From: Candidatus Eiseniibacteriota bacterium
GTDB taxonomy: Bacteria > Eisenbacteria > RBG-16-71-46
DNA length: 12,577 nucleotides
Reading direction: 5' to 3'
NCBI GenBank assembly: GCA_031370785.1
Contig: JANMQY010000128.1
Location: forward strand, 1 to 12,577
Shown here: positions 1 through 12,213 of the stretch, piece by piece
How positions within the stretch are numbered: the stretch's first letter is position 1
Layout: every line of letters starts with the position of its first letter
Position numbers and translations under genes: made by a program
Notes under the pieces: generated by a model
Seen by the model: the letters and a program-made list of their open reading frames with translations, nothing else
Told to the model about the DNA's origin: nothing
Database searches by the model: none

Positions 1-86
1 GGGCTCTCGCCAGCGCGAACGAGCTCGATCAGCCGAGCTCGAAACTCATCCGGATACGGCGGCGGTGGTGCAGACTTCTTTGGCAT
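1..86 (-). CDS. IS3-family transposase OrfA, N-terminal part (cut by window edge; not in ORF track)
   Basis: ATG at 86 gives MPKKSAPPPPYPDEFRARLIELVRAGES..., matching the typical OrfA start 'PPYPxEFRxxxxELVRAGxSP'. Confidence 0.85.
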   Translation of the reverse strand, partial: MPKKSAPPPPYPDEFRARLIELVRAGES

Positions 87-424: not shown

Positions 425-1420
425 TCAGGGCTCTGTGCGCGGAGAGCGAGGCGACCAGCTCAGAGTGAACACCAACGGTTGATCGCCCTGTTCGCCGCGC
501 ACCTTCGAGTAGATCGGAATGCCCACACTCAACGCCAGCGAACCGACGGGACCGATCGCGTGCCCGGCGCCAAGCGAGAGCAGTGCGTCCGTCCGGCCCA
601 GGTTTCCTTCCTCCTCAAGCCGTCCGTTCCAATGCTCCGCTTGTTCCCGCGTGATGTCGAGAGCGAGGCTTCCACTGCCCTGCCGAGGGAGCGAATGGGT
701 GAGGGTGAGATTCCCATTGAAGCGATCGCCAGCTTGGAAGCCGTGCGCGTTTTGGTTGAACACTAGGTGCGCCTGTGCGGTGGTCGAGAGCGTTCCGTGG
801 CCCAACTCACGTCCAGCGGCCACAGCAAGGACAGGATCCCAGGTGCCGGTGCCGAACTGGAAATGATCATGCGGCAGGCCAAGGCGTCCGAGCGCGAAAG
901 GATTCGGCTCAGTCCGGCCAATCGGAATGGATAGCCCCACTCGGCCGGCGAGACTCCAAACCTCACCGGCTCTCGCGATGTGCAGCGACAGCGTGGGGTC
1001 GGCTAGGCGCACCGGCGTCTCATTGCGGTGGTGACCATCCGGGTATTGGAGGGTGTAGGGCCGCCGAGCGACGTCCTCGTACCGGATGCGGCTGCGGATG
1101 AGCCGTAGGGGCACGAGCAGCTCAAGCCCGGCCCCCGGTCGAAACCCACGTGCCACGGTGAGATCAAGCTCGCCGACCGTGATCGTCTGGACGTGCCAGT
1201 AGTGAATCGACGAGTCCTGAAAGGCCGTCGTCGGGTGCTCGTTGTGAAAGCGGCCGCCGGTCAGGCTGGCGTTCCATCGCCACGCCGCAGGATCGGGCGG
1301 CAACAGCTCGAACCTGCCGACCGGCAGGTTGGGGTTGCTTCAGCCAGCTCAGGTCCAGCCGGTCGTCGGAGAGAACCCGAGGGCGACGACCGAGAGGATG
1401 ATGACGAGCGGACGCCTCAC
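425..1420 (-). CDS. predicted selenoprotein (Sec24, Sec27; UxxU motif): exported, His-rich, outer-membrane beta-barrel 'transporter'-like protein, 331 aa
   Basis: GTG at 1420 overlaps the upstream TGA (GTGA). Translation is MRRPLVIILSVVALGFSPTTGWT-TGA-AG-TGA-SNPNLPVGRFELLPPDP..., in frame with ORF 425..1303. The TGAs are at 1351-1349 and 1342-1340, followed by a SECIS-like hairpin. The body has amphipathic beta-strands and motifs LADPTL, GLSIPIG and QFGTGTWD, resembling PF13557-like barrels. Confidence 0.75.
1300..1339 (-). promoter_or_regulatory. bacterial SECIS-like element
   Basis: Perfect 8-bp stem AACCUGCC-GGUC-GGCAGGUU (1330..1311) starting 9 nt after the second UGA, with a G-first loop. 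Its core UGCcGGUCgGCA parallels fdhF UGCaGGUCuGCA. A lower stem GCAAC/GUUGC is possible. Confidence 0.7.
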
Positions 1421-2082
1421 CCTTTGATGCCGAGCGCAGCGTTGAGTTTCTTCGGGTCGTTCCCGCGGATGTCCGTGCGCTTGCCAGTTGGGTCGAAGAC
1501 CACGACGTAGGGCAGCGACTTCAGCTTGCCGCCGAGTTCGCGAGCAAGGCGTGACTCGAAGTCGACGACGTTGAGCTTGCGAATGGCGACATCCTTCCGT
1601 TCCGTCATGACTTCGCGCAGATGCTTGTCAACAACGTGGCAGGGTCCACACCAGTCGGCGTAGAAGTCGAGCACCGTGTACTTACCCGGTACGCGGAGCT
1701 TCTCGAGCGGCCCAACCGCGTCGCCCTTCGCGGTCACAACCATCATGTCCGCGCCTTCCGGATACGGCTCGGGCTGATAGGCGGCCGGCCTCGCGCCGTT
1801 GCCAGCGCCAACGAGAGCGCGATAGCAACCCTGACGCTCGAAAGCATCGATCACGACTCGGTCCGGAACATTGTCCGCCAGCGTGATGGTGAACTCGGAC
1901 TTCTTGGGATCGAAGGACCACTTCTTCACGCCCTTGAGCTTCTTGAGGTAGGGGGCGACCTCTTCCTCGCAGTTGCCGCAGTTTGACCCCTGGGCTGAGA
2001 ACACCTGCACACGGTCAGCCCAAGCCGAAGTCGCGATCACGAGAGAGAACAGTACTGTGAGACCGAGCCTGCACCGCATCAT
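1417..2082 (-). CDS. exported HMA (heavy-metal-associated) domain-thioredoxin fusion protein
   Basis: AAGGAG RBS before ATG ATG (2082/2079); signal peptide ending AWA; GSNCGNC HMA-like motif; C-terminal domain with VLDFYADWCGPC and the cis-Pro motif SLPYVVVFD. Confidence 0.85.
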   Translation of the reverse strand: MMRCRLGLTVLFSLVIATSAWADRVQVFSAQGSNCGNCEEEVAPYLKKLKGVKKWSFDPKKSEFTITLADNVPDRVVIDAFERQGCYRALVGAGNGARPAAYQPEPYPEGADMMVVTAKGDAVGPLEKLRVPGKYTVLDFYADWCGPCHVVDKHLREVMTERKDVAIRKLNVVDFESRLARELGGKLKSLPYVVVFDPTGKRTDIRGNDPKKLNAALGIKG

Positions 2083-2101
2083 GAGACTCCTTGTCGAAGT
2101 A

Positions 2102-2145
2102 GAACGAGCAAGGGGCCGAAACGCTCTCGGCCCCTCTCGCTGTTC
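2102..2145 (-). terminator. intergenic stem-loop (weak terminator or mRNA stability element)
   Basis: 9-bp perfect inverted repeat AGGGGCCGA (2111-2119) / TCGGCCCCT (2127-2135) with an imperfect outer stem. The minus-strand tail is pyrimidine-rich but not poly-U. Confidence 0.4.
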
Positions 2146-2156
2146 AGAGTGACTTC

Positions 2157-2267
2157 TTATGGGCAGAGCGGACACTTTCCAGGGCACCGCCACGAGGCCG
2201 CCCACGTGATGACACTAGGTGCAACCACGAGTACTGCACCAACGATTACAACCCAGAGACGCTTCAT
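2157..2267 (-). CDS. 36-aa signal/TM peptide with Cys-rich tail (not in ORF track)
   Basis: ATG overlaps the merR stop (ATGA), with AAGGAGG 8 nt upstream. Translation: MKRLWVVIVGAVLVVAPSVITWAASWRCPGKCPLCP*. Confidence 0.7.
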   Translation of the reverse strand: MKRLWVVIVGAVLVVAPSVITWAASWRCPGKCPLCP

Positions 2268-2698
2268 CGAGAGACCCTCCTTCCAGAGACGCGTTTGCTG
2301 ACCAGCTCTTCGATCACCGGGCATTCTCTAAGCGGCAGCACGTGCGGACAGGCGTCCCGCAGCGTTAGCAGCCGTCGGCGCTGCGCCCGAAGCTTGGCGA
2401 GTAGCTGATCCATGTGGTCGAGCTTGACCTGCACCGTTGCGCAAACGTCCTCGCAGTTCGCCCGCGAGTCGTTCATCGCATCGAGCAGCGCCGCGATCTC
2501 AGGCAAACTGAACCCGAGGGCTTGCGCTCGCTTGATGAGCTGGATCCGCTCGAGCGTTTCGGCCCCATAGCGGCGATGGCCGCTTACCGTACGACCTGGC
2601 TTCGGCAGAAGCCCCCGGCGCTCGTAGAACCGCAGGGTTTCCACGTTGACGCCAGCCACCCGAGCCAGCTCACCGCTACTCATCAATGCGCGGTCCAT
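2264..2698 (-). CDS. merR: MerR-family metal-responsive transcriptional regulator, 144 aa
   Basis: GGAGGAG RBS before ATG 2698; HTH GELARVAGVNVETLRFYERRGLL. Cys fall at 82, 117 and 126 (plus 86), the positions of the Hg(II) ligands in Tn21/Tn501 MerR. Confidence 0.9.
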   Translation of the reverse strand: MDRALMSSGELARVAGVNVETLRFYERRGLLPKPGRTVSGHRRYGAETLERIQLIKRAQALGFSLPEIAALLDAMNDSRANCEDVCATVQVKLDHMDQLLAKLRAQRRRLLTLRDACPHVLPLRECPVIEELVSKRVSGRRVSR

Positions 2699-2714
2699 CC
2701 CGACTCCTCCAGAT

Positions 2715-2746
2715 AGGATGCATCCAGTACTCAAGTACGGGTTCAA
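2715..2746 (-). promoter_or_regulatory. MerR-type promoter/operator
   Basis: -35 TTGAAC (2746-2741), a long 20-bp spacer containing the dyad CCGTAC-TTGA-GTACTGG (mer operator: CCGTAC-ATGA-GTACGG), and a candidate -10 CATCCT (2720-2715). Confidence 0.8.
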
Positions 2747-2857: not shown

Positions 2858-3256
2858 ATGATCACCCATCCGCAACTGCCGGGCGGCGCACTGGAATATG
2901 CGGTGCTGCTGACGATCCTTGATCTCGGCCGTGCATCGGCGCGCGAGATTCACGCGCGTGCTGGTGAGCCGAAGGGCTTGGTCTACACGACGACCGCCAA
3001 GGTGCTCGACCGGTTGCTCGCGAAACGGCTGGTCCGCCGCCAGCCGCACGGTCGAACGTTTCTCTACGAGCCCGCCATCGAGCGCGCGGTTCTCGAACGG
3101 GCCCGGGTTCGTGAAGCCCTTTCCCGGCTCTTCGGCGACGCCCCGTTGCCGGCGATGGCAACGCTGGTCGACGCCATGGAATCCCTGGATTCGGCGCTCT
3201 TGGACGAGCTCGCGCGGGAAGTCGCGGCGCGCAGAAGGCGGCGTCGTGGATCGTGA
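2858..3256 (+). CDS. BlaI/MecI/CopY family transcriptional repressor
   Basis: LEYAVLLTILDLGRASAREIH...LVYTTTAKVLDRLLAKRLVRRQPHGRTFLYEP, a winged-helix family pattern. Confidence 0.9.
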   Translation: MITHPQLPGGALEYAVLLTILDLGRASAREIHARAGEPKGLVYTTTAKVLDRLLAKRLVRRQPHGRTFLYEPAIERAVLERARVREALSRLFGDAPLPAMATLVDAMESLDSALLDELAREVAARRRRRRGS

Positions 3257-4082
3257 ACTCGTCTTGCTGATTCTCGTTCCATCAATCGCCGGACCGCTGA
3301 TGACTCTCGCGGGATGGTGGGCGCCTCGTCGGCCAGAAGGCACGTGCGCGACGCTCATGGAGCGGGTGCATTGGCGAGATCTCTGGATGCCCTGCGTTCC
3401 AGTCGCTGTGTTCGCGTCGTTGCTCATGGGATGGGCGATGACGGAGCCCGAACACGCTGAGGCCGCGCACGGACTGGTCGGAGTCCTGGCTACGGTGTTC
3501 ACGGCCGTGTGGGTCCGCGCGGTGTTCCGGGCGGCCTCGTCGCTGCTTCGCCGCCCGGTCGAGCAGCCGGCGTGCACGGTGGGTTTGCTGCGACCACGGG
3601 TCCGCCTGTCGCAGGCGTTGCTCGATACCCTTGATCCCGACGCCATCGAAGCGGCTCGGGCGCACGAGGAAGCACATGCCCGCCACTACGACCCGCTGCG
3701 TTTGTGGTTGGGTCAGCTCGTCACCGATCTCCAATGGCCGGCGGCCGCGCCGCGTGAACGACTGCGGGCCTGGCAGCGGACGCTGGAACTCGCGCGAGAC
3801 GAGGAGGCGCGACGGCATGGAGTGCGAGGCGACGATCTGGCGGCAGCAATCGTTGCAGCAGCGCGGCTCGGGGCGAGCATGTGTGCCTCGAGCGCGGCGT
3901 TGATGGGAAACGGTTCACGATTACGGGAGCGGATCCGCCGGGCACTCGCGCCGCTCACCTCACCGCCCGCCAAGGATTCGGGCCGTGTGCATCGCGCGAT
4001 CGCTCTACTGGTGATGTGCGTCGGCGCCGCCGTGGCTGGCCTTCATCTGGGCGAGTCGATGATGAGAGCGATTCTCCGTTGA
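3246..4082 (+). CDS. M56 (BlaR1/MecR1-like) membrane zinc metallopeptidase
   Basis: Probable GTG at 3246 overlapping the repressor end; N-terminal TM helices; ACTVGLLRPRVRLS, HEEAH (HExxH) and ELARDEEA motifs; no C-terminal penicillin-binding domain. Confidence 0.85.
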   Translation: MDRELVLLILVPSIAGPLMTLAGWWAPRRPEGTCATLMERVHWRDLWMPCVPVAVFASLLMGWAMTEPEHAEAAHGLVGVLATVFTAVWVRAVFRAASSLLRRPVEQPACTVGLLRPRVRLSQALLDTLDPDAIEAARAHEEAHARHYDPLRLWLGQLVTDLQWPAAAPRERLRAWQRTLELARDEEARRHGVRGDDLAAAIVAAARLGASMCASSAALMGNGSRLRERIRRALAPLTSPPAKDSGRVHRAIALLVMCVGAAVAGLHLGESMMRAILR

Positions 4083-4093
4083 GGGACGCAAAG

Positions 4094-5155
4094 ATGAGTG
4101 CACGAGTGAAGCAAGGCTTTCTCACTCTGATCGTGATTGCAGTCTTGGCGATCATGGTTTGGTTCTTCATGGAGCATCGCGAGGACCGCGAAAAAGAAGC
4201 AGAACGTGAGCGGCCCGCGACTGCCGAAGCTCCGGTGCGACGGTCGCCTAGTGGGGAGTCCGTGGTCACGCTCGACCTCGAGGCGCAGCAGCAGATCGGA
4301 CTGCGTGACACTCTGCTGGCCGTTCGCGGTGCAACTCCGGAAATGCTCGCCTTCGGCCAGGTCGTCGATCCATCGACGCTGGTAACCCTCGATGGTGACC
4401 TGTCGGCGGCGGAAGCGACCGCGCGTGCCTCACGGGCCATGTTTGAGCGGGCGAAGACACTTCGGCAGTCTGAGGTGTTCTCGCAGGCGGAGTTTGAGGC
4501 AGCCGAGGCCCACTACCGCGCGGACGAGTCCCGGCGTCGCCAGGCCGAGCAGCAGATGGCGGCCGAGTGGGGCGACTGGATCTCCGCGCAGTCACCGGCG
4601 GATCGCCACGCGCTGATCGAGCGGATCGCGGAGCGGAAGCTCGCATTGGCACGAGTGAGCCTGCCGCCCGGCGAGTCCGCGCGGCCTCGATTGGTGAATA
4701 CGCGGATCGAGGTTCTGGGCCAGGAAGCGAAGCCCCTCAAGCCCACTCGCATTCTCGAAGCGCCGTCGAGCGATCCGCGGACTCCGGGCGCGAGCTACTT
4801 CCTGCTATTCGCTCCCGCGAGTTTCGCGGTGAGGCCGGGCGATGCCGTCTCCGCGCGCTTCCCGGGAGCAGCCGCTCCGCTCCGCGGCCTCGTGGTTCCA
4901 CACGATGCCGCCGTTCGATACGGCGGCCAGGTCTGGGCCTACGTGCGAGTCGGACCCGAGCAGTTTGCCCGCCGAACCGTTTCGACGGAGCAGCCGACAG
5001 TAAATGGATGGCTCGTGAGTTCCGGATTCGCTTCGGGCGAGCGTCTGGTCGTCGTGGGAGCGCAGGCGCTGCTCTCTGAAGAGTTCAAGTCCCAGATTCA
5101 GGTTGGAGAAGAGGGCGACAAAGAGAAGGAGCGTGAGGGGAAAAAAAGCCGATGA
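4094..5155 (+). CDS. RND efflux periplasmic adaptor (membrane fusion protein)
   Basis: Probable ATG at 4094; N-terminal TM anchor, coiled coil, and C-terminal VVPHDAAVRYGGQVWAYV...GERLVVVGAQALLSEE; adjacent to the RND permease. Confidence 0.88.
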   Translation: MSARVKQGFLTLIVIAVLAIMVWFFMEHREDREKEAERERPATAEAPVRRSPSGESVVTLDLEAQQQIGLRDTLLAVRGATPEMLAFGQVVDPSTLVTLDGDLSAAEATARASRAMFERAKTLRQSEVFSQAEFEAAEAHYRADESRRRQAEQQMAAEWGDWISAQSPADRHALIERIAERKLALARVSLPPGESARPRLVNTRIEVLGQEAKPLKPTRILEAPSSDPRTPGASYFLLFAPASFAVRPGDAVSARFPGAAAPLRGLVVPHDAAVRYGGQVWAYVRVGPEQFARRTVSTEQPTVNGWLVSSGFASGERLVVVGAQALLSEEFKSQIQVGEEGDKEKEREGKKSR

Positions 5156-5198
5156 TCGCCCTCGTCGGCTACTGTAATCCTTCACGAAACGGCTCGGC

Positions 5199-8100
5199 AT
5201 GCTGACCGGCATCGTCGAGTTCTCACTCCGCTTTCGCGGAGTAGTCATCGCGCTCGCCGCAGCCATCGCCGGCTACGGAATCTACGTGGCGCTGCACGCC
5301 AAGCTTGATGTCTTTCCCGAGTTTGCGCCGCCGCTGGTGGTTGTTATGACCGAGGCTCCGGGCCTCTCACCCCCTGAGGTCGAGGCGCTGGTGACCGTGC
5401 CGGTCGAGAACGCGGTCAATGGCGTGCCGGGCTTGGAATCGATGCGCTCGCAGTCGATCCAGGGCGTCTCGGTGGTGACGGCGGTGTTCCAGCCATCGAC
5501 CGATCTGTTCCGCGCGCGTCAGATGGTGGGTGAACGATTGAGCGAAACTGCCGGCCGGTTGCCGATTGGAGTTGCGGCTCCCGCGATTGCGCCGTTGACC
5601 TCGTCCACCAGCGTGATCCTCGCGGTTGGGCTCACCTCGACCAAGCGATCGGCGATGGACGTGCGGAGCTTCGCCGATTGGGTCCTGCGGCCCCGTTTGC
5701 TGGGCGTGCCGGGGGTGGCCAAGGTCGCGATCTTTGGCGGCGAAGTGCGCCAGCTTCAGATCCAAGTGGACCCCGACCGGCTTACGAGCTATGGCCTGGC
5801 ATTGGACGATGTCCTCGCCGCCGCACGTAACGCTACCGGCGTGCGCGGCGCCGGATTCGTCGAGAACAACAATCAGCGAATCGTGCTGCGCACCGAAGGC
5901 CAAACCCTGACACCCGAAGCGCTGGGTGGAGTCGTCGTAGCGCATCACCAAGGGGTGAGCGTGCGGCTGAAGGACGTCGCGCGCGTCACGAACGCCGCCG
6001 CCCCTCGACTCGGCGATGCGGCCATCATGGGCGAGCCGGGCGTCGTGCTCGTCGTCTCGAGCCAGTACGGCGCGAACACCATGCGCGTGACGCAGGCCGT
6101 GGAGGCCGCCCTCCGGGAGCTTCAACCCAGTCTCGTGAGCGAACAGCTGACGCTCCATCCAGGCCTGTTTCGGCCGGCGAACTTCATCACCACCGCGACC
6201 GACAACGTGCGTGCGTCGCTCTTGCAAGGGGCGGTGCTGGTTTCCATCGTACTGCTGCTGTTCCTCTTCAATGTCCGCACCGCGTTCATCTCGCTCACGG
6301 CCATACCGCTCTCGCTCCTCGTGGCCGTCATTGGTCTCGATCGGATGGGGCTCAGCCTCAACACGCTCACGCTTGGCGGCCTTGCGATCGCCATAGGCGC
6401 CGTCGTGGACGACGCGATCATCGACGTCGAGAATATCTTTCGCCGGGTGCGCGAAGGCGGCGTCGGCACCAGCTCGACCGCGCACTTCCGCGTCGTGCGC
6501 GACGCGTCGATCGAAGTGCGAAGCGCCGTCGTATACGCCACCTTCATCGTGGCTCTGGTGTTCCTGCCGGTCCTCGCCATGTCGGGGGTGCAAGGACGCC
6601 TTTTCGCGCCGCTCGCGATCGCCTACATCTTGGCGATCCTCGCCTCGCTCATCGTGGCGCTCACCCTCATACCGGCATTGTGCATAGCGTTACTGCCATC
6701 GAGCGTGGTGCCGGAGGTCGAGCCGCCGCTCCTGCGGGTCCTCAAGCACCACTATGCGGCGCTGTTGTCGGCGATCAGCGCACGCCGACGTGCGGTGCTG
6801 GTAGTCGTTGGCGCCTTGTGCCTGGCCGCGGGCGCAATCGTCCCGTTCCTTGGCGGCTCATTCCTCCCGGAACTCCGCGAGGGGCACTTCATCATCCATA
6901 TGTCGGCAGTGCCCGGGACGTCGATCGAGGAGTCGATGCGTTTGGGAGGCGCCGTAACGCACGAGCTGCTCCGCAATCGACACATCCGCTCGGTGGCGCA
7001 GCGAGTGGGGCGTGCTGAGAAGTCGGACGACACCTGGGGCACGCACTACAGTGAGTTCGACGTCGACTTGAAGGGGCTGTCCGCCAAGGAGGCGGAGCAC
7101 GTCCCGGAGGAGATCGGCGAGGCGCTGGCCAAGATTCCTGGCGCGAGCTTTGCCGTCAAGCCATTCCTCACGGAACGCATCGAAGAGACCCTGTCGGGCG
7201 TCACCGCACAGGTCGCTATCAAGCTCTTCGGGGACAAGCTTGATGAGCTGGACGCAAAGGCCCACGAAGTCGCTCGCGTACTGGCGGAGACGCCCGGTTC
7301 GGCTGACGTAACCGTCGAGGCGCAACCCACCGTACCCGAGATCACGATCCGGTTGCGGCCCGATCGGCTCACGCAACTCGGTTTCCAGCCGGTCCAAGTG
7401 CTCGAAGCGGTCGAGGCCGCCTATCAAGGCGCTATTGTGGCCCAGACGTACCAGGGCACGAGGGTAACCGACGTGAGTGTGATTCTCGCCCCAGGCGGGC
7501 GCGAGCCCGAGAATATCGGCGCGCTCCTGCTGCGCAACTCAGAAGGTGCGGGGTTTCCGCTGCGCGAGCTGGCCGACATCGAGGCGACGACTGGATGGTA
7601 TGCGATCCTCCATGAGGACGGGCGCCGCCGCGTGCTCGCGACCTGCAACGTGCACGGGCGCGATGTGGAGTCCTTCGTCGCTGAGGCCCGGCGTCGGGTC
7701 GCCCGGGAAGTCCTCATGCCGGCTGGTGTGTACTCGGTCTTCAGCGGCGCGGCCGAAGCTCAGGCTGTGGCCCGCCGGGAGATCCTGCTCTACTCGTTGC
7801 TCGCCGGCGTCGGGATCGTGCTGCTCCTGGCAATCGTATTCCGGAGTGGGCGGAACCTGGCACTTGTGCTAGCGAATCTGCCGTTCGCGTTGGTCGGTGG
7901 CGTGCTTGCTGTGTTTCTCACCGGCGGCTGGCTCTCTGTCGGTTCACTGGTCGGTTTCGTCACGCTGTTCGGCATCAGCACCCGTAACTCGATCATGCTC
8001 ATCTCGCACTACGATCACATCGTGGCGCACGAGGGCATGGCCTGGGGACCAGACGCGGCGCTCCGCGGGGCGGCTGAGCGCTTCGCACCGATCGTGATGA

Positions 8101-8294
8101 CCGCACTGGTCACCGCGCTGGGGCTGCTGCCGCTCGCCATTGGCAGCGGAGCGCCAGGGCGAGAGATTGAGGGTCCGATGGCGATTGTCATCCTCGGTGG
8201 GCTCGTGACGTCCACGCTGCTCAACCTCCTCGTGCTGCCGACCCTGGCGCTCAGGTTCGGGCGATTTGAACACTCTGGGGTCACCGAGCGGTGA
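5199..8294 (+). CDS. CusA/CzcA-like (heavy-metal efflux) RND permease, 1031 aa
   Basis: LDVFPEFAPPLVVVMTEAPGLSP; TM4 LGGLAIAIGAVVDDAIIDVENI; ERFAPIVMTALVTALGLLPLA; 12-TM RND layout. Confidence 0.93.
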   Translation: MLTGIVEFSLRFRGVVIALAAAIAGYGIYVALHAKLDVFPEFAPPLVVVMTEAPGLSPPEVEALVTVPVENAVNGVPGLESMRSQSIQGVSVVTAVFQPSTDLFRARQMVGERLSETAGRLPIGVAAPAIAPLTSSTSVILAVGLTSTKRSAMDVRSFADWVLRPRLLGVPGVAKVAIFGGEVRQLQIQVDPDRLTSYGLALDDVLAAARNATGVRGAGFVENNNQRIVLRTEGQTLTPEALGGVVVAHHQGVSVRLKDVARVTNAAAPRLGDAAIMGEPGVVLVVSSQYGANTMRVTQAVEAALRELQPSLVSEQLTLHPGLFRPANFITTATDNVRASLLQGAVLVSIVLLLFLFNVRTAFISLTAIPLSLLVAVIGLDRMGLSLNTLTLGGLAIAIGAVVDDAIIDVENIFRRVREGGVGTSSTAHFRVVRDASIEVRSAVVYATFIVALVFLPVLAMSGVQGRLFAPLAIAYILAILASLIVALTLIPALCIALLPSSVVPEVEPPLLRVLKHHYAALLSAISARRRAVLVVVGALCLAAGAIVPFLGGSFLPELREGHFIIHMSAVPGTSIEESMRLGGAVTHELLRNRHIRSVAQRVGRAEKSDDTWGTHYSEFDVDLKGLSAKEAEHVPEEIGEALAKIPGASFAVKPFLTERIEETLSGVTAQVAIKLFGDKLDELDAKAHEVARVLAETPGSADVTVEAQPTVPEITIRLRPDRLTQLGFQPVQVLEAVEAAYQGAIVAQTYQGTRVTDVSVILAPGGREPENIGALLLRNSEGAGFPLRELADIEATTGWYAILHEDGRRRVLATCNVHGRDVESFVAEARRRVAREVLMPAGVYSVFSGAAEAQAVARREILLYSLLAGVGIVLLLAIVFRSGRNLALVLANLPFALVGGVLAVFLTGGWLSVGSLVGFVTLFGISTRNSIMLISHYDHIVAHEGMAWGPDAALRGAAERFAPIVMTALVTALGLLPLAIGSGAPGREIEGPMAIVILGGLVTSTLLNLLVLPTLALRFGRFEHSGVTER

Positions 8295-8585: not shown

Positions 8586-8598
8586 CTGGTCGCAAGAA

Positions 8599-8648
8599 GG
8601 CGATGGAGTTCGCCTGAACCGCCCGGCCCCCGGGCTGATGACTCCTAC
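8599..8648 (+). ncRNA. fluoride riboswitch (crcB motif)
   Basis: GGCGATGGAGTTCGCC-TGAACC-GCCCGG...CGGGC-TGATGACTCCTAC matches the consensus, including GGAGT/ACTCC pseudoknot pairing, and lies directly upstream of crcB. Confidence 0.95.
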
Positions 8649-8676
8649 CGAGTTCGGTGGGGGTCATTTCGTTTTT
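8638..8676 (+). terminator. riboswitch expression-platform intrinsic terminator
   Basis: ATGACTCCTACCGA pairs with TCGGTGGGGGTCAT, followed by TTCGTTTTT. The 5' arm is the aptamer 3' end, so the two structures are mutually exclusive. Confidence 0.85.
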
Positions 8677-8690
8677 CGGCGGGAGGTGAG

Positions 8691-9068
8691 ATGGAGAAGA
8701 TTCTGCTCGTCGGCCTTGGCGGCTTTCTGGGCTCGATCATGCGATACGGCGTCGGCGGACTAGTCGGTCGCCTTAAGGCAGGCTCGACGTTTCCGCTGGA
8801 GACGCTGCTTATCAACGTGGCCGGCTGTCTGGTGCTTGGGCTCTTGGCGGGTCTCAGTGAGTCACGAGGCGTCTTCTCCGCAACGACGCGGGCCTTTCTG
8901 TTCATCGGACTCTTGGGCGGGTTCACGACGTTTTCGACTTTTGGCTACGAGACGTTCCAGCTTTTGCGCGGTGGTCAATGGACCTCGGCGGCACTCTCGA
9001 CAACGCTACAGTTCGTTCTCGGGATCGGCGGTGTTTGGGCTGGCCACGCCCTGGCGCGGCTAGCGTGA
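8691..9068 (+). CDS. crcB: fluoride efflux channel FluC/CrcB
   Basis: GGAGG RBS; GGFLGSIMRY, FPLETLLINVAGC and GLLGGFTTFSTF motifs; 125 aa. Confidence 0.96.
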   Translation: MEKILLVGLGGFLGSIMRYGVGGLVGRLKAGSTFPLETLLINVAGCLVLGLLAGLSESRGVFSATTRAFLFIGLLGGFTTFSTFGYETFQLLRGGQWTSAALSTTLQFVLGIGGVWAGHALARLA

Positions 9069-9076
9069 GGTAAATC

Positions 9077-9425
9077 ATGACCATTCCAGAAGACGGGTAC
9101 CTGTTGAGGGTTTTCGTGGGGGAGAGCGACAAGCATGAGGGGAAGCCTCTCTACGAATGGCTCGTGCTGAAGGCCCGTGAAGCTGGTTTGGCGGGTGCCA
9201 CCGTCCTCCGGGGCATTGAAGGCTTTGGTGCGCACAGCCGGCTGCACACCGCGAAGATCCTGCGCCTCTCGGAAGATCTGCCGATCGTCGTGGAGATCGT
9301 CGACTCCCGGGAGAGGATTGAGGCCTTCATGCCCACTGTGGACCACGCGATCACGGAAGGGCTCGCGACGCTCGAGCGGGTCACCCGTGCGCTTCTACCG
9401 CGCCGGCTCCAAGGACAACTCATAA
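9077..9425 (+). pseudogene. DUF190 (PII-like) protein with an apparent +1 frameshift near the 3' end (or a sequencing error)
   Basis: LLRVFVGESDKHEGKPLYEWLV...AGATVLRGIEGFG...LSEDLPIVVEIVD. Removing one C from CCC at 9384-9386 gives the family-like end LERVTVRFYRAGSKDNS* (115 aa). Confidence 0.75.
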
Positions 9426-9576
9426 TCTTCCACAATGCGACCGCTGCCGTCGCAGAACGCCACTCGTCGGGCTGGCCCCGCCCTCTCCCCAAGGAGGCCA
9501 CGAGTACGAGCTTCTCCGCGCCATCGTCCTAGTCTCATAGAAACGCAGCCGTCAGCCGTGTCCCCCAGGAGACTCC

Positions 9577-10374
9577 GTGATCCAGAAGCGATCTTGGGCC
9601 GCCTTTGCCACCGGAGCAGGTGTCGGCACACTGGGAGGCTTGATCGGACTTGGCGGCGCTGAGTTTCGCCTGCCGTTGCTACTCGGTATTTTCGGATTTG
9701 CTCCCCTCGAAGCAGTCATCCTCAACAAGGCGATGAGCTTGATCGTCGTGGCGTCCGCGCTCCCATTCCGGGCGGCGACAGTGCCAATGTCTGCCGTGGT
9801 TCATGCTTGGCCAGTCATCGCGAATCTCCTGGCTGGTAGCCTCGTCGGAGCTTGGCTTGGGGCGGGGTTCGCGGTCCGGATCGAGGCCGCCACACTGCGA
9901 CGCATCATCGCCGGCTTGCTCGTAGCGATTGCCCTGGTCCTGCTCTTCGCGCACAACCCGTCCGGACAACGCTTCGCCGTATTAGGTGGTGGGCTTCTGT
10001 TCGGAGTCGGACTCATTGCTGGCTTCGGCATCGGTGCCGTGGCGGCACTGCTGGGCGTCGCCGGGGGAGAGCTCTTAATTCCGACACTCGTTCTGCTCTT
10101 CGGCGTCGACATCAAACTGGCGGGCAGCCTCTCGCTCGCGATCAGTCTTCCAACCATGGTGGTGGCATTTGCGCGATACAGCCAAGATCAGAGCTTCGTC
10201 GTGCTCCGCAGGAATCGTGCGTTCGTCTTCACCCTGGCCGCAGGGTCCGTGTTGGGGACCTTCATCGGTGGCCGCCTGTTAGGGATGGTGCCCTCGGGCT
10301 TGCTCCTGCCGATCTTGAGCGTGATCCTGCTCGTTTCAGCCTTCAAGACTTGGCGGCACTCACCCAGGCCTTGA
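9577..10374 (+). CDS. TauE/SafE (TSUP) family sulfite/anion exporter
   Basis: AGGAG RBS and GTG start; duplicated motifs GGLIGLGGAEFRLP and LLGVAGGELLIP; about 8 hydrophobic segments. Confidence 0.9.
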   Translation: MIQKRSWAAFATGAGVGTLGGLIGLGGAEFRLPLLLGIFGFAPLEAVILNKAMSLIVVASALPFRAATVPMSAVVHAWPVIANLLAGSLVGAWLGAGFAVRIEAATLRRIIAGLLVAIALVLLFAHNPSGQRFAVLGGGLLFGVGLIAGFGIGAVAALLGVAGGELLIPTLVLLFGVDIKLAGSLSLAISLPTMVVAFARYSQDQSFVVLRRNRAFVFTLAAGSVLGTFIGGRLLGMVPSGLLLPILSVILLVSAFKTWRHSPRP

Positions 10375-10400
10375 CGCATCAAGAACCGCTGATGTATCTC
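10371..10400 (+). promoter_or_regulatory. ars promoter with ArsR operator; probably leaderless
   Basis: -35 TTGACG overlapping the tauE stop; dyad CATCA-N8-TGATG (ATCAA-N6-CTGAT); weak -10 TATCTC; ATG 7 nt later with no RBS. Confidence 0.6.
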
Positions 10401-10407
10401 TGTCCGC

Positions 10408-10728
10408 ATGGCTCCCGCAACGCGGTCCTCGAGCGAACTGGCCAGCCAGTTCCACGCGCTCTCCGACGAGACGCGGGTGCGAATCGTGGACCTCCTTCGT
10501 GGCGGCGAGCACTGCGTCTGCGAGTTGACCGAGGCGCTCGACTTGTCGCAGCCGCTGCTCTCGTTCCACCTCAAGTCGCTCAAAGATGCTGGGCTCGTGC
10601 GCGACCGCCGGGAGGGGCGCTGGGCGTACTACGCTCTCAGTGTCGAGGCGATCGATGCGCTTGGGGGATTCATCCGCGATTTGGCGAAGTCGCCGCGACG
10701 TGGCAAGAACGTTCGCTGCTGCGATTGA
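10408..10728 (+). CDS. arsR: ArsR/SmtB family metalloregulator
   Basis: FHALSDETRVRIVDLL, GEHCVCEL (alpha3 As(III) site), SQPLLSFHLKSLKDAGLV, and C-terminal vicinal CC. Confidence 0.92.
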   Translation: MAPATRSSSELASQFHALSDETRVRIVDLLRGGEHCVCELTEALDLSQPLLSFHLKSLKDAGLVRDRREGRWAYYALSVEAIDALGGFIRDLAKSPRRGKNVRCCD

Positions 10729-10736
10729 GCGCGCGC

Positions 10737-11480
10737 ATGACCTTCTCCCTCTCGAAGCGCGCGGCGGCGGAAGGAATCGGTACAGCACTTCTGCTCGCGA
10801 CCGTCGTCGGTTCCGGGATCATGGCTGAGCGCCTGGCCGGCGGGAACGCTGCCATCGCGCTCCTCGCCAACACGCTCGCTACCGGTGCTGGGCTCGCCGC
10901 CCTCATTCTCACTTTCGGCCCGATCTCCGGTGCGCATTTCAATCCCGCGGTGACGCTCGCGTCCGCCTCGCAGCACGGATTGGCATGGCGGGACGTGCCG
11001 GTCTACTTGGCCGCGCAGTTTAGCGGCGCGTTCGCGGGAGTGTTGGCTGCGCACCTCATGTTCAGCATGCCGCTCTTGTCTCTCTCGCACCATGCGCGAT
11101 CTGGGAGCGGGCAGTTCTTCAGCGAAGTTGTCGCCACTTTTGGTCTGCTCGCGGTCATCTGGGGTTGCTCCCGGTACCGCGCGCCTGCCGTTCCGTTCGC
11201 CGTCGGCGCCTACATCACGGCTGCCTATTGGTTCACGGCCTCGACTTCGTTCGCGAATCCCGCCGTCACGCTCGCCCGCTCGGTCACGGACACCTTCGCC
11301 GGGATTCGGCCCATGGACGTGCCGGGCTTCATCGGTGCGCAGTTGGTGGGCGCCGCTGCAGCCACGATTCTCTTCCGGTGGCTCGGACCAGCTCGGAAGG
11401 AGGAGAGCGATGAAATACGCGTTGATCTCGGACATCCACGCCAATCTACCGGCGTTGGAAGCCGTGCTGCAGGACATTGA
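10737..11480 (+). CDS. MIP family aquaporin, AqpS-like arsenite channel
   Basis: Probable ATG at 10737; two NPA motifs (SGAHFNPAVT, FTASTSFANPAVT); directly follows arsR. Confidence 0.9.
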   Translation: MTFSLSKRAAAEGIGTALLLATVVGSGIMAERLAGGNAAIALLANTLATGAGLAALILTFGPISGAHFNPAVTLASASQHGLAWRDVPVYLAAQFSGAFAGVLAAHLMFSMPLLSLSHHARSGSGQFFSEVVATFGLLAVIWGCSRYRAPAVPFAVGAYITAAYWFTASTSFANPAVTLARSVTDTFAGIRPMDVPGFIGAQLVGAAAATILFRWLGPARKEESDEIRVDLGHPRQSTGVGSRAAGH

Positions 11481-12213
11481 CGGCCGAGCAGATGTAGCGG
11501 CCACGTATCATCTCGGCGATCTTGTCGGTTACTCGCCATGGCCTAACGAGGTAGTTGATCTACTGCGCCAGCGCGCGATGGCCGGGATCGCCGGCAACTA
11601 CGACTCGACGACCGGCACCGACTACAAGCATTGCGGCTGTAAGTACGAGAACCCTGAGCAAGAGGCGCTCTCACACCTCAGCTATGAGTGGACCCGCGCG
11701 CATGTCTCGCCGGAGACGAAGCGCTATCTCGCCGGGCTGCCGTTCCGGCTCGATCTCTGGCCGCTCGGTGGCCATATTTCCGGGGGGCCACGAGTCATCC
11801 TCGTCCACGGATCACCGATGCTGAACACCCTCTACTGGACCGAGGATCGGCCCGATTCATTCTGCACACAGATGGCTGGCATTGCCGGGGCGAAACCCGG
11901 TGACGTGATTGCGTTCGGCCACACGCACAAGCCATGGCACCGTGTCGTGGAGGGCGTGCACTTCCTCAACACCGGCTCGGTAGGCAAGCCGAAAGATGGT
12001 CACTGGCGAGCCGGGTACGTCCTCCTGTCGATCGGGGAGGGCGATCCGAAGCCGGAGTTCATTCGGGTCGATTACGACATCGAGCGAACCATGATGGCCA
12101 TCCAGTCGAGCGACCTGCCGGATGAGTTTGCGGAGCAGCTCCGCACCGGCGGCGTGCCGGGATCGCCGCAGGAGTACCAGACAGTTGGGGAGAACGGCGA
12201 ACAAGGTCCGTAG
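11410..12213 (+). CDS. calcineurin-like metallophosphoesterase family protein
   Basis: AGGAGGAG RBS, ATG 11410; motifs SDIHAN, GDLVGY, GNYD, HGSP, GHTH and NTGSVG, plus an HCGC insert. Confidence 0.9.
   Translation: MKYALISDIHANLPALEAVLQDIDGRADVAATYHLGDLVGYSPWPNEVVDLLRQRAMAGIAGNYDSTTGTDYKHCGCKYENPEQEALSHLSYEWTRAHVSPETKRYLAGLPFRLDLWPLGGHISGGPRVILVHGSPMLNTLYWTEDRPDSFCTQMAGIAGAKPGDVIAFGHTHKPWHRVVEGVHFLNTGSVGKPKDGHWRAGYVLLSIGEGDPKPEFIRVDYDIERTMMAIQSSDLPDEFAEQLRTGGVPGSPQEYQTVGENGEQGP

Follow-up and report, generated by a model that had tools for sequence, protein, structure and literature searches.

Here, we describe a gene of Candidatus Eiseniibacteriota that, judged from its sequence, very probably encodes a selenoprotein, namely an exported beta-barrel protein with two selenocysteine (Sec, U) residues near its mature N-terminus. 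The gene is located on the minus strand of contig JANMQY010000128.1 (assembly GCA_031370785.1), at positions 425 to 1420 of the 12,577-nt stretch that we call the window; all coordinates are window positions. Its sense frame from 1420 to 428 runs from a start codon through a leader and the codons TGA-GCT-GGC-TGA into a barrel of the PF13557 type. Taken as a whole, it is likely that the product is an exported PF13557/COG4313-type barrel that carries two Sec residues guided by a selenocysteine insertion sequence (SECIS), is accompanied by a thioredoxin partner and may have a role in metal or redox chemistry. A preliminary description of this stretch had already extended the frame to a coupled GTG and had pointed out the leader, the two TGA codons and a hairpin, and our reading of the sequence agrees with it throughout. 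The features of the gene are given below. Counts over 80 loci refer here and in the following to the best 80 of 423 relatives that a pattern scan confirmed in a collection with a single genome for each species.

425..1420, minus strand: full candidate selenoprotein gene, GTG start at 1420..1418, 331 codons, TGA stop at 427..425
1352..1420, minus strand: signal-peptide-like leader of 23 codons with two Arg, a hydrophobic core and a stretch of small residues
1349..1351, minus strand: first in-frame TGA, putative U24; the aligned position is TGA in 48 of 80 loci and a cysteine (Cys) codon in 31 of 80
1340..1342, minus strand: second in-frame TGA, putative U27; the aligned position is TGA in 63 of 80 loci and a Cys codon in 17 of 80
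1311..1330, minus strand: predicted SECIS hairpin, 8-bp stem of 1330..1323 with 1318..1311, GGUC apical loop at 1322..1319, minimum free energy (MFE) -12.7 kcal/mol
446..1291, minus strand: predicted beta-barrel domain, residues about 44-325 (PF13557, AlphaFold2, Foldseek)

The in-frame TGA codons and the SECIS hairpin

An open reading frame (ORF) listing under translation table 11 shows just 425..1303 of the gene. The GTG start shares bases with the TGA stop of the upstream gene at 1419..1417 (GTGA), and this overlap suggests translational coupling. Behind the leader the motif reads TGA (1351..1349), GCT, GGC and TGA (1342..1340), that is U-A-G-U, and the second TGA is followed by 304 further open codons down to the stop. 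The full-length translation aligns end to end with homologues that have CxxC at this place, and similar leaders stand before the motif in every homologue. Since both the upstream gene and the gene itself end with TGA, this codon is an ordinary stop in the genome, in line with what had been said of the neighbouring genes before. The preliminary description had placed the UxxU motif at the predicted N-terminus of the mature protein at exact CxxC spacing. The spacing holds; the location need not be position +1, and the motif more probably lies a few residues past the likely signal-peptidase site. A lipoprotein, in which the first Cys or Sec would be the lipidated residue, is unlikely, as most leaders inspected by eye have no lipobox before the first U.

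Homologues were collected in two ways. In addition to the pattern scan, a six-frame search covered 61 genomes, the window's own and 60 relatives, and gave matches in 12 of them; ten places at E 6.3e-17 or better were translated. Nine of these ten strong homologues have U-[AP]-[GA]-U-[ST]-N-P immediately behind a leader that resembles a signal peptide, whereas in the tenth (L015) a homologous N-terminal region is missing. Nothing claimed here rests on L020, a member of the nine whose genome is flagged as unpublished. Among the best 80 loci the UxxU form is found 48 times, CxxU 15 times, CxxC 16 times and a single Cys once, while UxxC does not occur, and tryptophan is present at neither motif position in any of them. 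The hosts include Candidatus Eisenbacteria, Acidobacteriota, many Myxococcota, Fibrobacteria and others. Cultured Myxococcota are among the carriers (Archangium gephyra, Archangium violaceum, a Myxococcus sp. and Pyxidicoccus), and the CxxU form is present in cultured myxobacteria. At the protein level the conserved motif is U/C-x-x-U/C-[STRQA]-N-P-x-L-P. Pairing of Sec with Cys among homologues is the signature used by methods that find selenoproteins independently of the SECIS, as set out in a May 2026 review (PMC13188914), and this pairing is what we observe, an in-frame UGA aligned with Cys in the homologues. UxxU, CxxU and CxxC behind a leader are also the forms that the preliminary description had named as support, just as it had named tryptophan as evidence to the contrary.

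In a tree of 60 sequences, calculated with the N-terminal columns left out, the three Sec/Cys states require at least 5 changes, compared with a mean of 25.6 after shuffling. The CxxC forms make up two clades that stand next to clades of U forms, and the nearest relatives of the window gene are from Candidatus Eisenbacteria.

The reality of the TGA codons can be judged from independent data. Contigs from public sequencing runs that cover 1200..1500 include those of one run that is identical to the window over this stretch and may be its source. Contigs of a second study represent a strain variant of about 96% identity, with 7 other letters in 193, which keeps both TGA codons; this contradicts the read errors that had been considered as a refutation. 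In the variant an A>C exchange at 1346, between the two TGA codons, is synonymous (GCT>GCG, Ala). Three further differences, located by hand from the coordinates, fall in the leader, of which two are synonymous at third positions and one is a conservative Thr>Ser. This is the pattern that would be expected of translated sequence. The idea that both TGA codons are nonsense changes, in a pseudogene or through a mistake of assembly or sequencing, has nothing in its favour except the stop codons themselves, and we regard its probability as negligible. The same TGA pair occurs in the 48 independent UxxU loci among the 80, which come from several phyla, and it stands in the second-study contigs together with a synonymous change in between; there is no frameshift and the remaining gene is strongly conserved. 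The earlier argument that a pair at this spacing is an improbable product of random nonsense mutation gains weight from its recurrence at the same aligned positions in nine of the ten strong homologues of the related genomes.

The hairpin downstream of the motif (AACCTGCC-GGTC-GGCAGGTT in DNA at 1330..1311, AACCUGCC-GGUC-GGCAGGUU in RNA) starts 22 nt past the first base of the first TGA and sits within the codons for N-L-P-V-G-R. The distances from UGA to loop are 26 nt for the first and 17 nt for the second UGA, and the spacers from UGA to stem are 20 nt and 11 nt, respectively. The model for the bacterial SECIS (bSECIS), as summarised in the review cited above, has a loop of 3-9 nt, a stem of 4-16 bp and a G in the first two loop positions, and further a UGA-to-loop distance of 16-37 nt and an MFE of -7.5 kcal/mol or lower (PMC13188914). 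All of these properties are found here, with the 4-nt GGUC loop, a stem of 6-8 bp, the distances of 26 and 17 nt and the MFE of -12.7 kcal/mol.

Covariation was tested in an ungapped alignment of 67 TGA-bearing genes for a seven-pair stem of our own specification. The stem is 90.0% paired, compared with 78.9% in shuffles, and its covariation score of 0.320 (0.125 in shuffles) was reached by none of 500 shuffles; control stems slid by 1-3 columns scored at most 0.058. The most informative pair, formed by columns 27 and 36, is CG in 37 sequences, GC in 17, UA in 6, UG in 4, GU in 2 and unpaired in one. These columns are the third bases of a Leu and a Gly codon, therefore the compensation takes place at synonymous sites. 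An MFE of -7.5 kcal/mol or lower is found in 66 of the 67 sequences. The element that had been called SECIS-like thus agrees with the published bSECIS model and covaries. Of 62 TGA-bearing genes, 61 form at least five of the seven pairs, while none of 16 CxxC genes forms more than four, and the GGTC loop is present in 61 of 62 compared with 1 of 16. The mean MFE of a 48-nt segment gave no separation (-14.3 kcal/mol for Sec forms and -12.4 kcal/mol for Cys forms), whereas the count of the specific pairs did. In the hairpin region the Sec forms read P-V-G-[GRK], while Cys forms read P-T-A-R, P-V-T-R, P-I-T-R, P-M-V-R and others. Hence an RNA constraint accounts for part of the apparent protein conservation. 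The sole TGA-bearing gene without the hairpin is L052.

This gene (L052:2842-3594, the same sequence as L019) is a shortened member of the family that has kept U-A-G-U and has lost about 100 barrel residues. Its hairpin is degenerate (2 of 7 pairs, MFE -1.6 kcal/mol), and it is maybe a decaying copy.

The minimal SECIS of E. coli, as described in the literature, has an 11-nt spacer and the bases G23 and U24 in its loop (PMC8659212). Like the fdhF-type element of E. coli, the present hairpin is a short upper stem-loop with G and U in the loop that lies 11 nt past a UGA, here the second one. It differs in that a single hairpin apparently serves two UGA codons 9 nt apart, and in that its 5' arm has no bulged U. 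The occurrence of CxxU but not of UxxC forms would fit with the second position being the better-served one.

Gene callers annotate the family as if it consisted of two units, and one could accordingly imagine a short ORF or leader that ends at the first TGA, a barrel that starts from the TTG at 1303, and a hairpin that acts as attenuator or terminator. We consider this arrangement extremely improbable. A barrel begun at 1303 has no signal peptide, the CxxC homologues are continuous and aligned across the whole region, and the reading frame is conserved at the protein level together with the U/C-x-x-U/C-[STRQA]-N-P-x-L-P motif. Furthermore, the hairpin is missing exactly where Cys replaces Sec.

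Decoding of UGA as Sec requires that the host is equipped for it. The window's own genome (147 contigs, 100% marker completeness) contains selA (542.2 bits), selB (348.1 bits at a cut-off of 242.25; cut by a contig end, profile positions 2-351 of 581) and selD (354.7 bits, with one in-frame TGA of its own). A tRNA-Sec gene adjoins selD (Rfam RF01852, 69.1 bits; tRNA-SeC with anticodon TCA in ARAGORN). All four components that the preliminary description had listed, selA, selB, selC and selD, are therefore present. The selA gene was also found in all five U-form genomes tested, four times above the cut-off and once as a partial match at a contig end, compared with none of five CxxC-form genomes, a small sample.

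The selD gene of the host (G000:C73:99658-100812; loci L001 and L027) is itself a selenoprotein gene with its TGA in a C-A-G-U context. Its hairpin has a different, GG-containing loop, and the tRNA-Sec gene lies directly beside it.

The UGA codons might be decoded in another way, either by near-cognate readthrough that inserts Trp or Cys or through some local recoding that does not involve SelB. What speaks for this is that the Sec assignment is drawn from sequence data. The Sec machinery of the host is complete, however, the hairpin fits the bSECIS model at canonical spacing, and homologues have Cys and never Trp at both positions. Together with the distribution of selA (five of five genomes with TGA forms, none of five with CxxC) and the use of TGA as normal stop in the adjacent genes, this makes decoding other than by Sec highly improbable.

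The barrel and related channels

The protein matches PF13557 (Phenol_MetA_deg) with 26.7 bits at a cut-off of 22 bits (E 7.2e-06), covering residues 134-302 only. An AlphaFold2 model calculated from a 60-sequence alignment has a predicted local distance difference test score (pLDDT) of 87.7 and a predicted template modelling score (pTM) of 0.84, and it is nearly all beta-strand from residue 47 onwards. In a Foldseek search against the PDB the best match was FapF (5o67, E 1.1e-10, template modelling (TM) score 0.63 on the target), and second came the COG4313 channel of Pseudomonas putida F1 (4rl8_C, E 2.7e-10, TM 0.59/0.71, the 0.71 on the target); general porins were far behind these two. Six histidines are invariant in the 60 aligned sequences (H62, H76, H130, H131, H184 and H186), and so are the two Sec/Cys positions, P30, P33, D141, Q188 and a few glycines and prolines. 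The outer-membrane barrel with histidines that had been proposed from the sequence is hence the fold on which Pfam, AlphaFold2 and Foldseek agree.

The COG4313 channel 4rl8 is likewise an outer-membrane barrel of similar size, but sequence identity is just 14%. To our knowledge, neither a Sec/Cys pair nor a dedicated thioredoxin partner nor a conserved set of histidines is on record for it. The substrates proposed for the COG4313 channel are hydrophobic molecules. With the amyloid secretion channel FapF (5o67, 5o65) the identity is 11-14%; the operon of FapF is different and the protein lacks a Sec/Cys motif. In FapF the pore of the barrel is plugged by an N-terminal segment.

The review lists just two outer-membrane proteins, both barrels predicted to contain Sec, namely the MtrB/PioB-family protein GSU2204 (NF041027) and the FCYXU-type TonB-dependent receptor (NF049945) (PMC13188914). 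These belong to different, much larger barrel families and have one Sec each, elsewhere in the protein. A close known counterpart of the motif is the UxxU metal-binding (seleno)protein NF041115, which also has two Sec at CxxC spacing as a presumed metal ligand (PMC13188914). It is a small soluble protein of the HMA fold, unlike the barrel described here, and its model touches the HMA domain of the partner protein weakly (E 0.0095). None of the three models, NF041027, NF049945 and NF041115, matches the barrel protein in NCBIfam at E up to 0.01. Finally, in UxxU proteins of the SelL type the thioredoxin fold surrounds the motif, while here UxxU precedes a barrel and the thioredoxin is a separate, adjacent protein.

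The thioredoxin partner, neighbouring genes and possible functions

The genes directly upstream of the barrel gene are as follows.

1417..2205, minus strand: partner gene, exported protein with an HMA-like (CxxC) and a thioredoxin (WCGPC) domain, likely start ATG at 2082
2264..2746, minus strand: MerR-family metal-responsive regulator, TIGR02051 116.5 bits, below the cut-off of 150.85 bits

The thioredoxin domain of the partner has the motif WCGPC and an E-value of 4.6e-10. A relative of this thioredoxin adjoins the barrel gene in 74 of the 80 loci, mostly just upstream. The barrel ORF even continues in frame into the thioredoxin in a group whose members are mostly labelled Kofleriaceae. Two such fusions (L073:2914-4890 and L110:2989-5088) consist of a UxxU barrel, a His/Glu- or His/Asp-rich linker, the thioredoxin, a Pro-rich linker and a Cupredoxin_1 domain, and a third (L059:2935-4314) has barrel and thioredoxin domain only. 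Fusions and synteny together support a functional link between barrel and thioredoxin, and the in-frame fusions put the thioredoxin on that side of the membrane on which the termini of the barrel lie. The extra module of the partner varies between clades, being either HMA or a pair of Cys/His-rich repeats. The repeats stand in place of HMA in Myxococcota and in the CxxC clades, where the partner is lipoprotein-like, both judged by eye. The repeat motif is roughly C-x-H-x-V-P-x(3)-C-x(2)-C-x-P (L081:1892-2992, L090:2258-2956, L050:2330-2995, L056:2357-3001), and a Pfam scan of two of these partners, L050 and L056, gave no match at E up to 1e-4.

The MerR regulator is local context, since such a gene adjoins the barrel in just 4 of 80 loci. 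A mercury-specific role of the family, to which the adjacent MerR gene had pointed, was therefore dropped, given this rarity and the TIGR02051 match below cut-off. Neighbours at other loci include a CDF transporter, MerR together with ArsR, and a chromate transporter.

How could such a protein work? We propose that both UGA codons are decoded as Sec by SelB and tRNA-Sec under the guidance of one GGUC-loop SECIS. The product would carry U-A-G-U a few residues past the signal-peptide cleavage site of an outer-membrane barrel. The selenol pair would thus sit on a flexible N-terminal segment, either at the periplasmic side or mouth of the channel or as a plug inside it. The partner thioredoxin might keep the pair reduced, load it or exchange metal with it, and the pair might, in concert with the barrel's invariant histidines, bind a thiophilic metal (Cu, Hg, Cd or Zn class) or pass it on. 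Alternatively, the diselenide/selenol redox state could gate the channel. Family and partner may in this way constitute an unrecognised outer-membrane system for handling of soft metals or for redox gating, with a 12-strand-type channel, an N-terminal diselenide/selenolate pair, six histidines at lumen or rim and a dedicated periplasmic thioredoxin with a metal module; this is a tentative suggestion. A metal role of the selenol pair as such is possible, at somewhat less than an even chance, and its main rival is a purely redox role.

In the latter case the motif would belong to a thioredoxin-driven reductase, a peroxide scavenger or a channel switch, and the metal modules of the partner would serve otherwise. 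A WCGPC/WCxPC thioredoxin is indeed the only conserved partner (in the 74 of 80 loci mentioned), and most known UxxC and CxxU selenoproteins listed in the review are redox proteins (PMC13188914). However, depending on the clade the partner bears HMA, Cys/His repeats, His-rich linkers or a cupredoxin-like domain, six histidines of the barrel are invariant, and several neighbours are related to metals. We therefore regard an exclusively redox function as rather unlikely, keeping in mind that redox and metal roles are not mutually exclusive.

Several observations weigh against the reading of the gene as a two-Sec barrel with a metal-linked partner. The Sec assignment is a prediction from sequence. 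The first UGA is 20 nt away from the stem, beyond the 11 nt favoured by the E. coli system, and a search of 1150..1450 against Rfam, with E-values up to 10 allowed, gave no SECIS family, only a chance microRNA match at E 8.7. In the AlphaFold2 model residues 11-30, which comprise leader and motif, have a pLDDT below 50. The HMA match of the partner reaches 24.4 bits, just under the Pfam cut-off of 24.8. Incomplete assemblies may account in part for the lack of selA in the five genomes with CxxC, and the rare MerR (4 of 80 loci) and varied neighbours speak for no particular metal.

The remaining window contains further genes. Divergent from the MerR gene lies a heavy-metal efflux operon (2919..8294, plus strand) with an RND adaptor (3881..5155) and a CusA/CzcA-type RND pump (5199..8294, 695.4 bits at a cut-off of 701.45 bits). 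An ORF of 387 aa (2919..4082) overlaps the adaptor; it has sub-cut-off matches in Pfam and none in NCBIfam, and it may or may not be an outer-membrane factor. A fluoride riboswitch (8590..8654, plus strand; Rfam RF01734, 61.5 bits at a cut-off of 34 bits) precedes two genes, crcB for a fluoride channel and one for a DUF190 protein (8691..9068 and 9077..9532). Past the fluoride genes, 9577..12213 (plus strand) encodes a TauE/SafE-type exporter, a MIP-family channel and a metallophosphoesterase. The MIP match covers residues 298-439 of a long ORF, the true start of which is probably later. At its other end the window opens inside a minus-strand ORF (1..86, ATG at 86), the first 28 residues of which we take to resemble the N-terminus of an IS3-type transposase OrfA. 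This IS3-like ORF may explain why the contig ends there.

Annotation and significance of the family

The family is large, and most of its public gene calls miss the decisive region. A profile search of 1.84 billion cluster representatives (50% identity) gave 1227 matches at E<=0.001 and 338 at E<=1e-30. Among the best 150 representatives at least 13 have CxxC and 2 have a single Cys, and the others (at most 135) begin downstream of the motif. Of the rows classed as downstream starters, 135 of 136 begin with M, V or L. These downstream starts resemble gene calls made behind an in-frame stop, and some could be fragments. Close relatives in public protein collections are N-terminally truncated and align with no more than 87% of the query; they go by the names hypothetical protein, transporter or putative porin. 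Relatives from cultured Archangium and Hyalangium are hypothetical proteins of 279-291 residues, and full-length relatives of 340-360 residues exist as well. The truncation by standard pipelines that had been predicted for this gene is thus what public gene calls display: they start downstream of the motif and have no signal peptide.

NCBIfam release 20 has no model for the barrel protein. Table 1 of the May 2026 review, with 119 prokaryotic selenoprotein families, holds no PF13557-type or comparable barrel, and the proteins that it lists with UxxU are an HMA-like metal-binding protein, an FmdB-family protein and Prx-like oxidoreductases (PMC13188914). Term searches of a 2022 review, deep-Sep, BSepDB and further literature gave no such family either; an unnamed mention in Haft and Tolstoy 2025 or in supplements is possible. 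The preliminary description knew of no selenoprotein family like this one, and NCBIfam, the list of 119 families and the literature searched do not provide one. The family is undescribed as far as these searches reach. Its decoding mechanism is standard and its fold is known; new are the combination, the compartment and the partner system.

These data enlarge the prokaryotic selenoproteome by a widespread two-Sec family, and hardly any Sec protein is known with this fold or from this compartment. They also reveal a systematic annotation error, in that the gene calls of the family miss both motif and signal peptide. The paired UGA codons on one hairpin offer a natural system to study how far SelB reaches from the SECIS, and if our reading is true they would be a natural case of a single bacterial SECIS that decodes two UGA codons, at spacings of 11 nt and 20 nt. 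Because the CxxU form is present in cultured Archangium, Myxococcus and Pyxidicoccus, selenium incorporation, the role of the partner and a metal phenotype are directly testable. Should the proposed function be correct, selenium would serve these bacteria outside the cytoplasm, for affinity to Cu, Hg or Cd or for resistance to over-oxidation.

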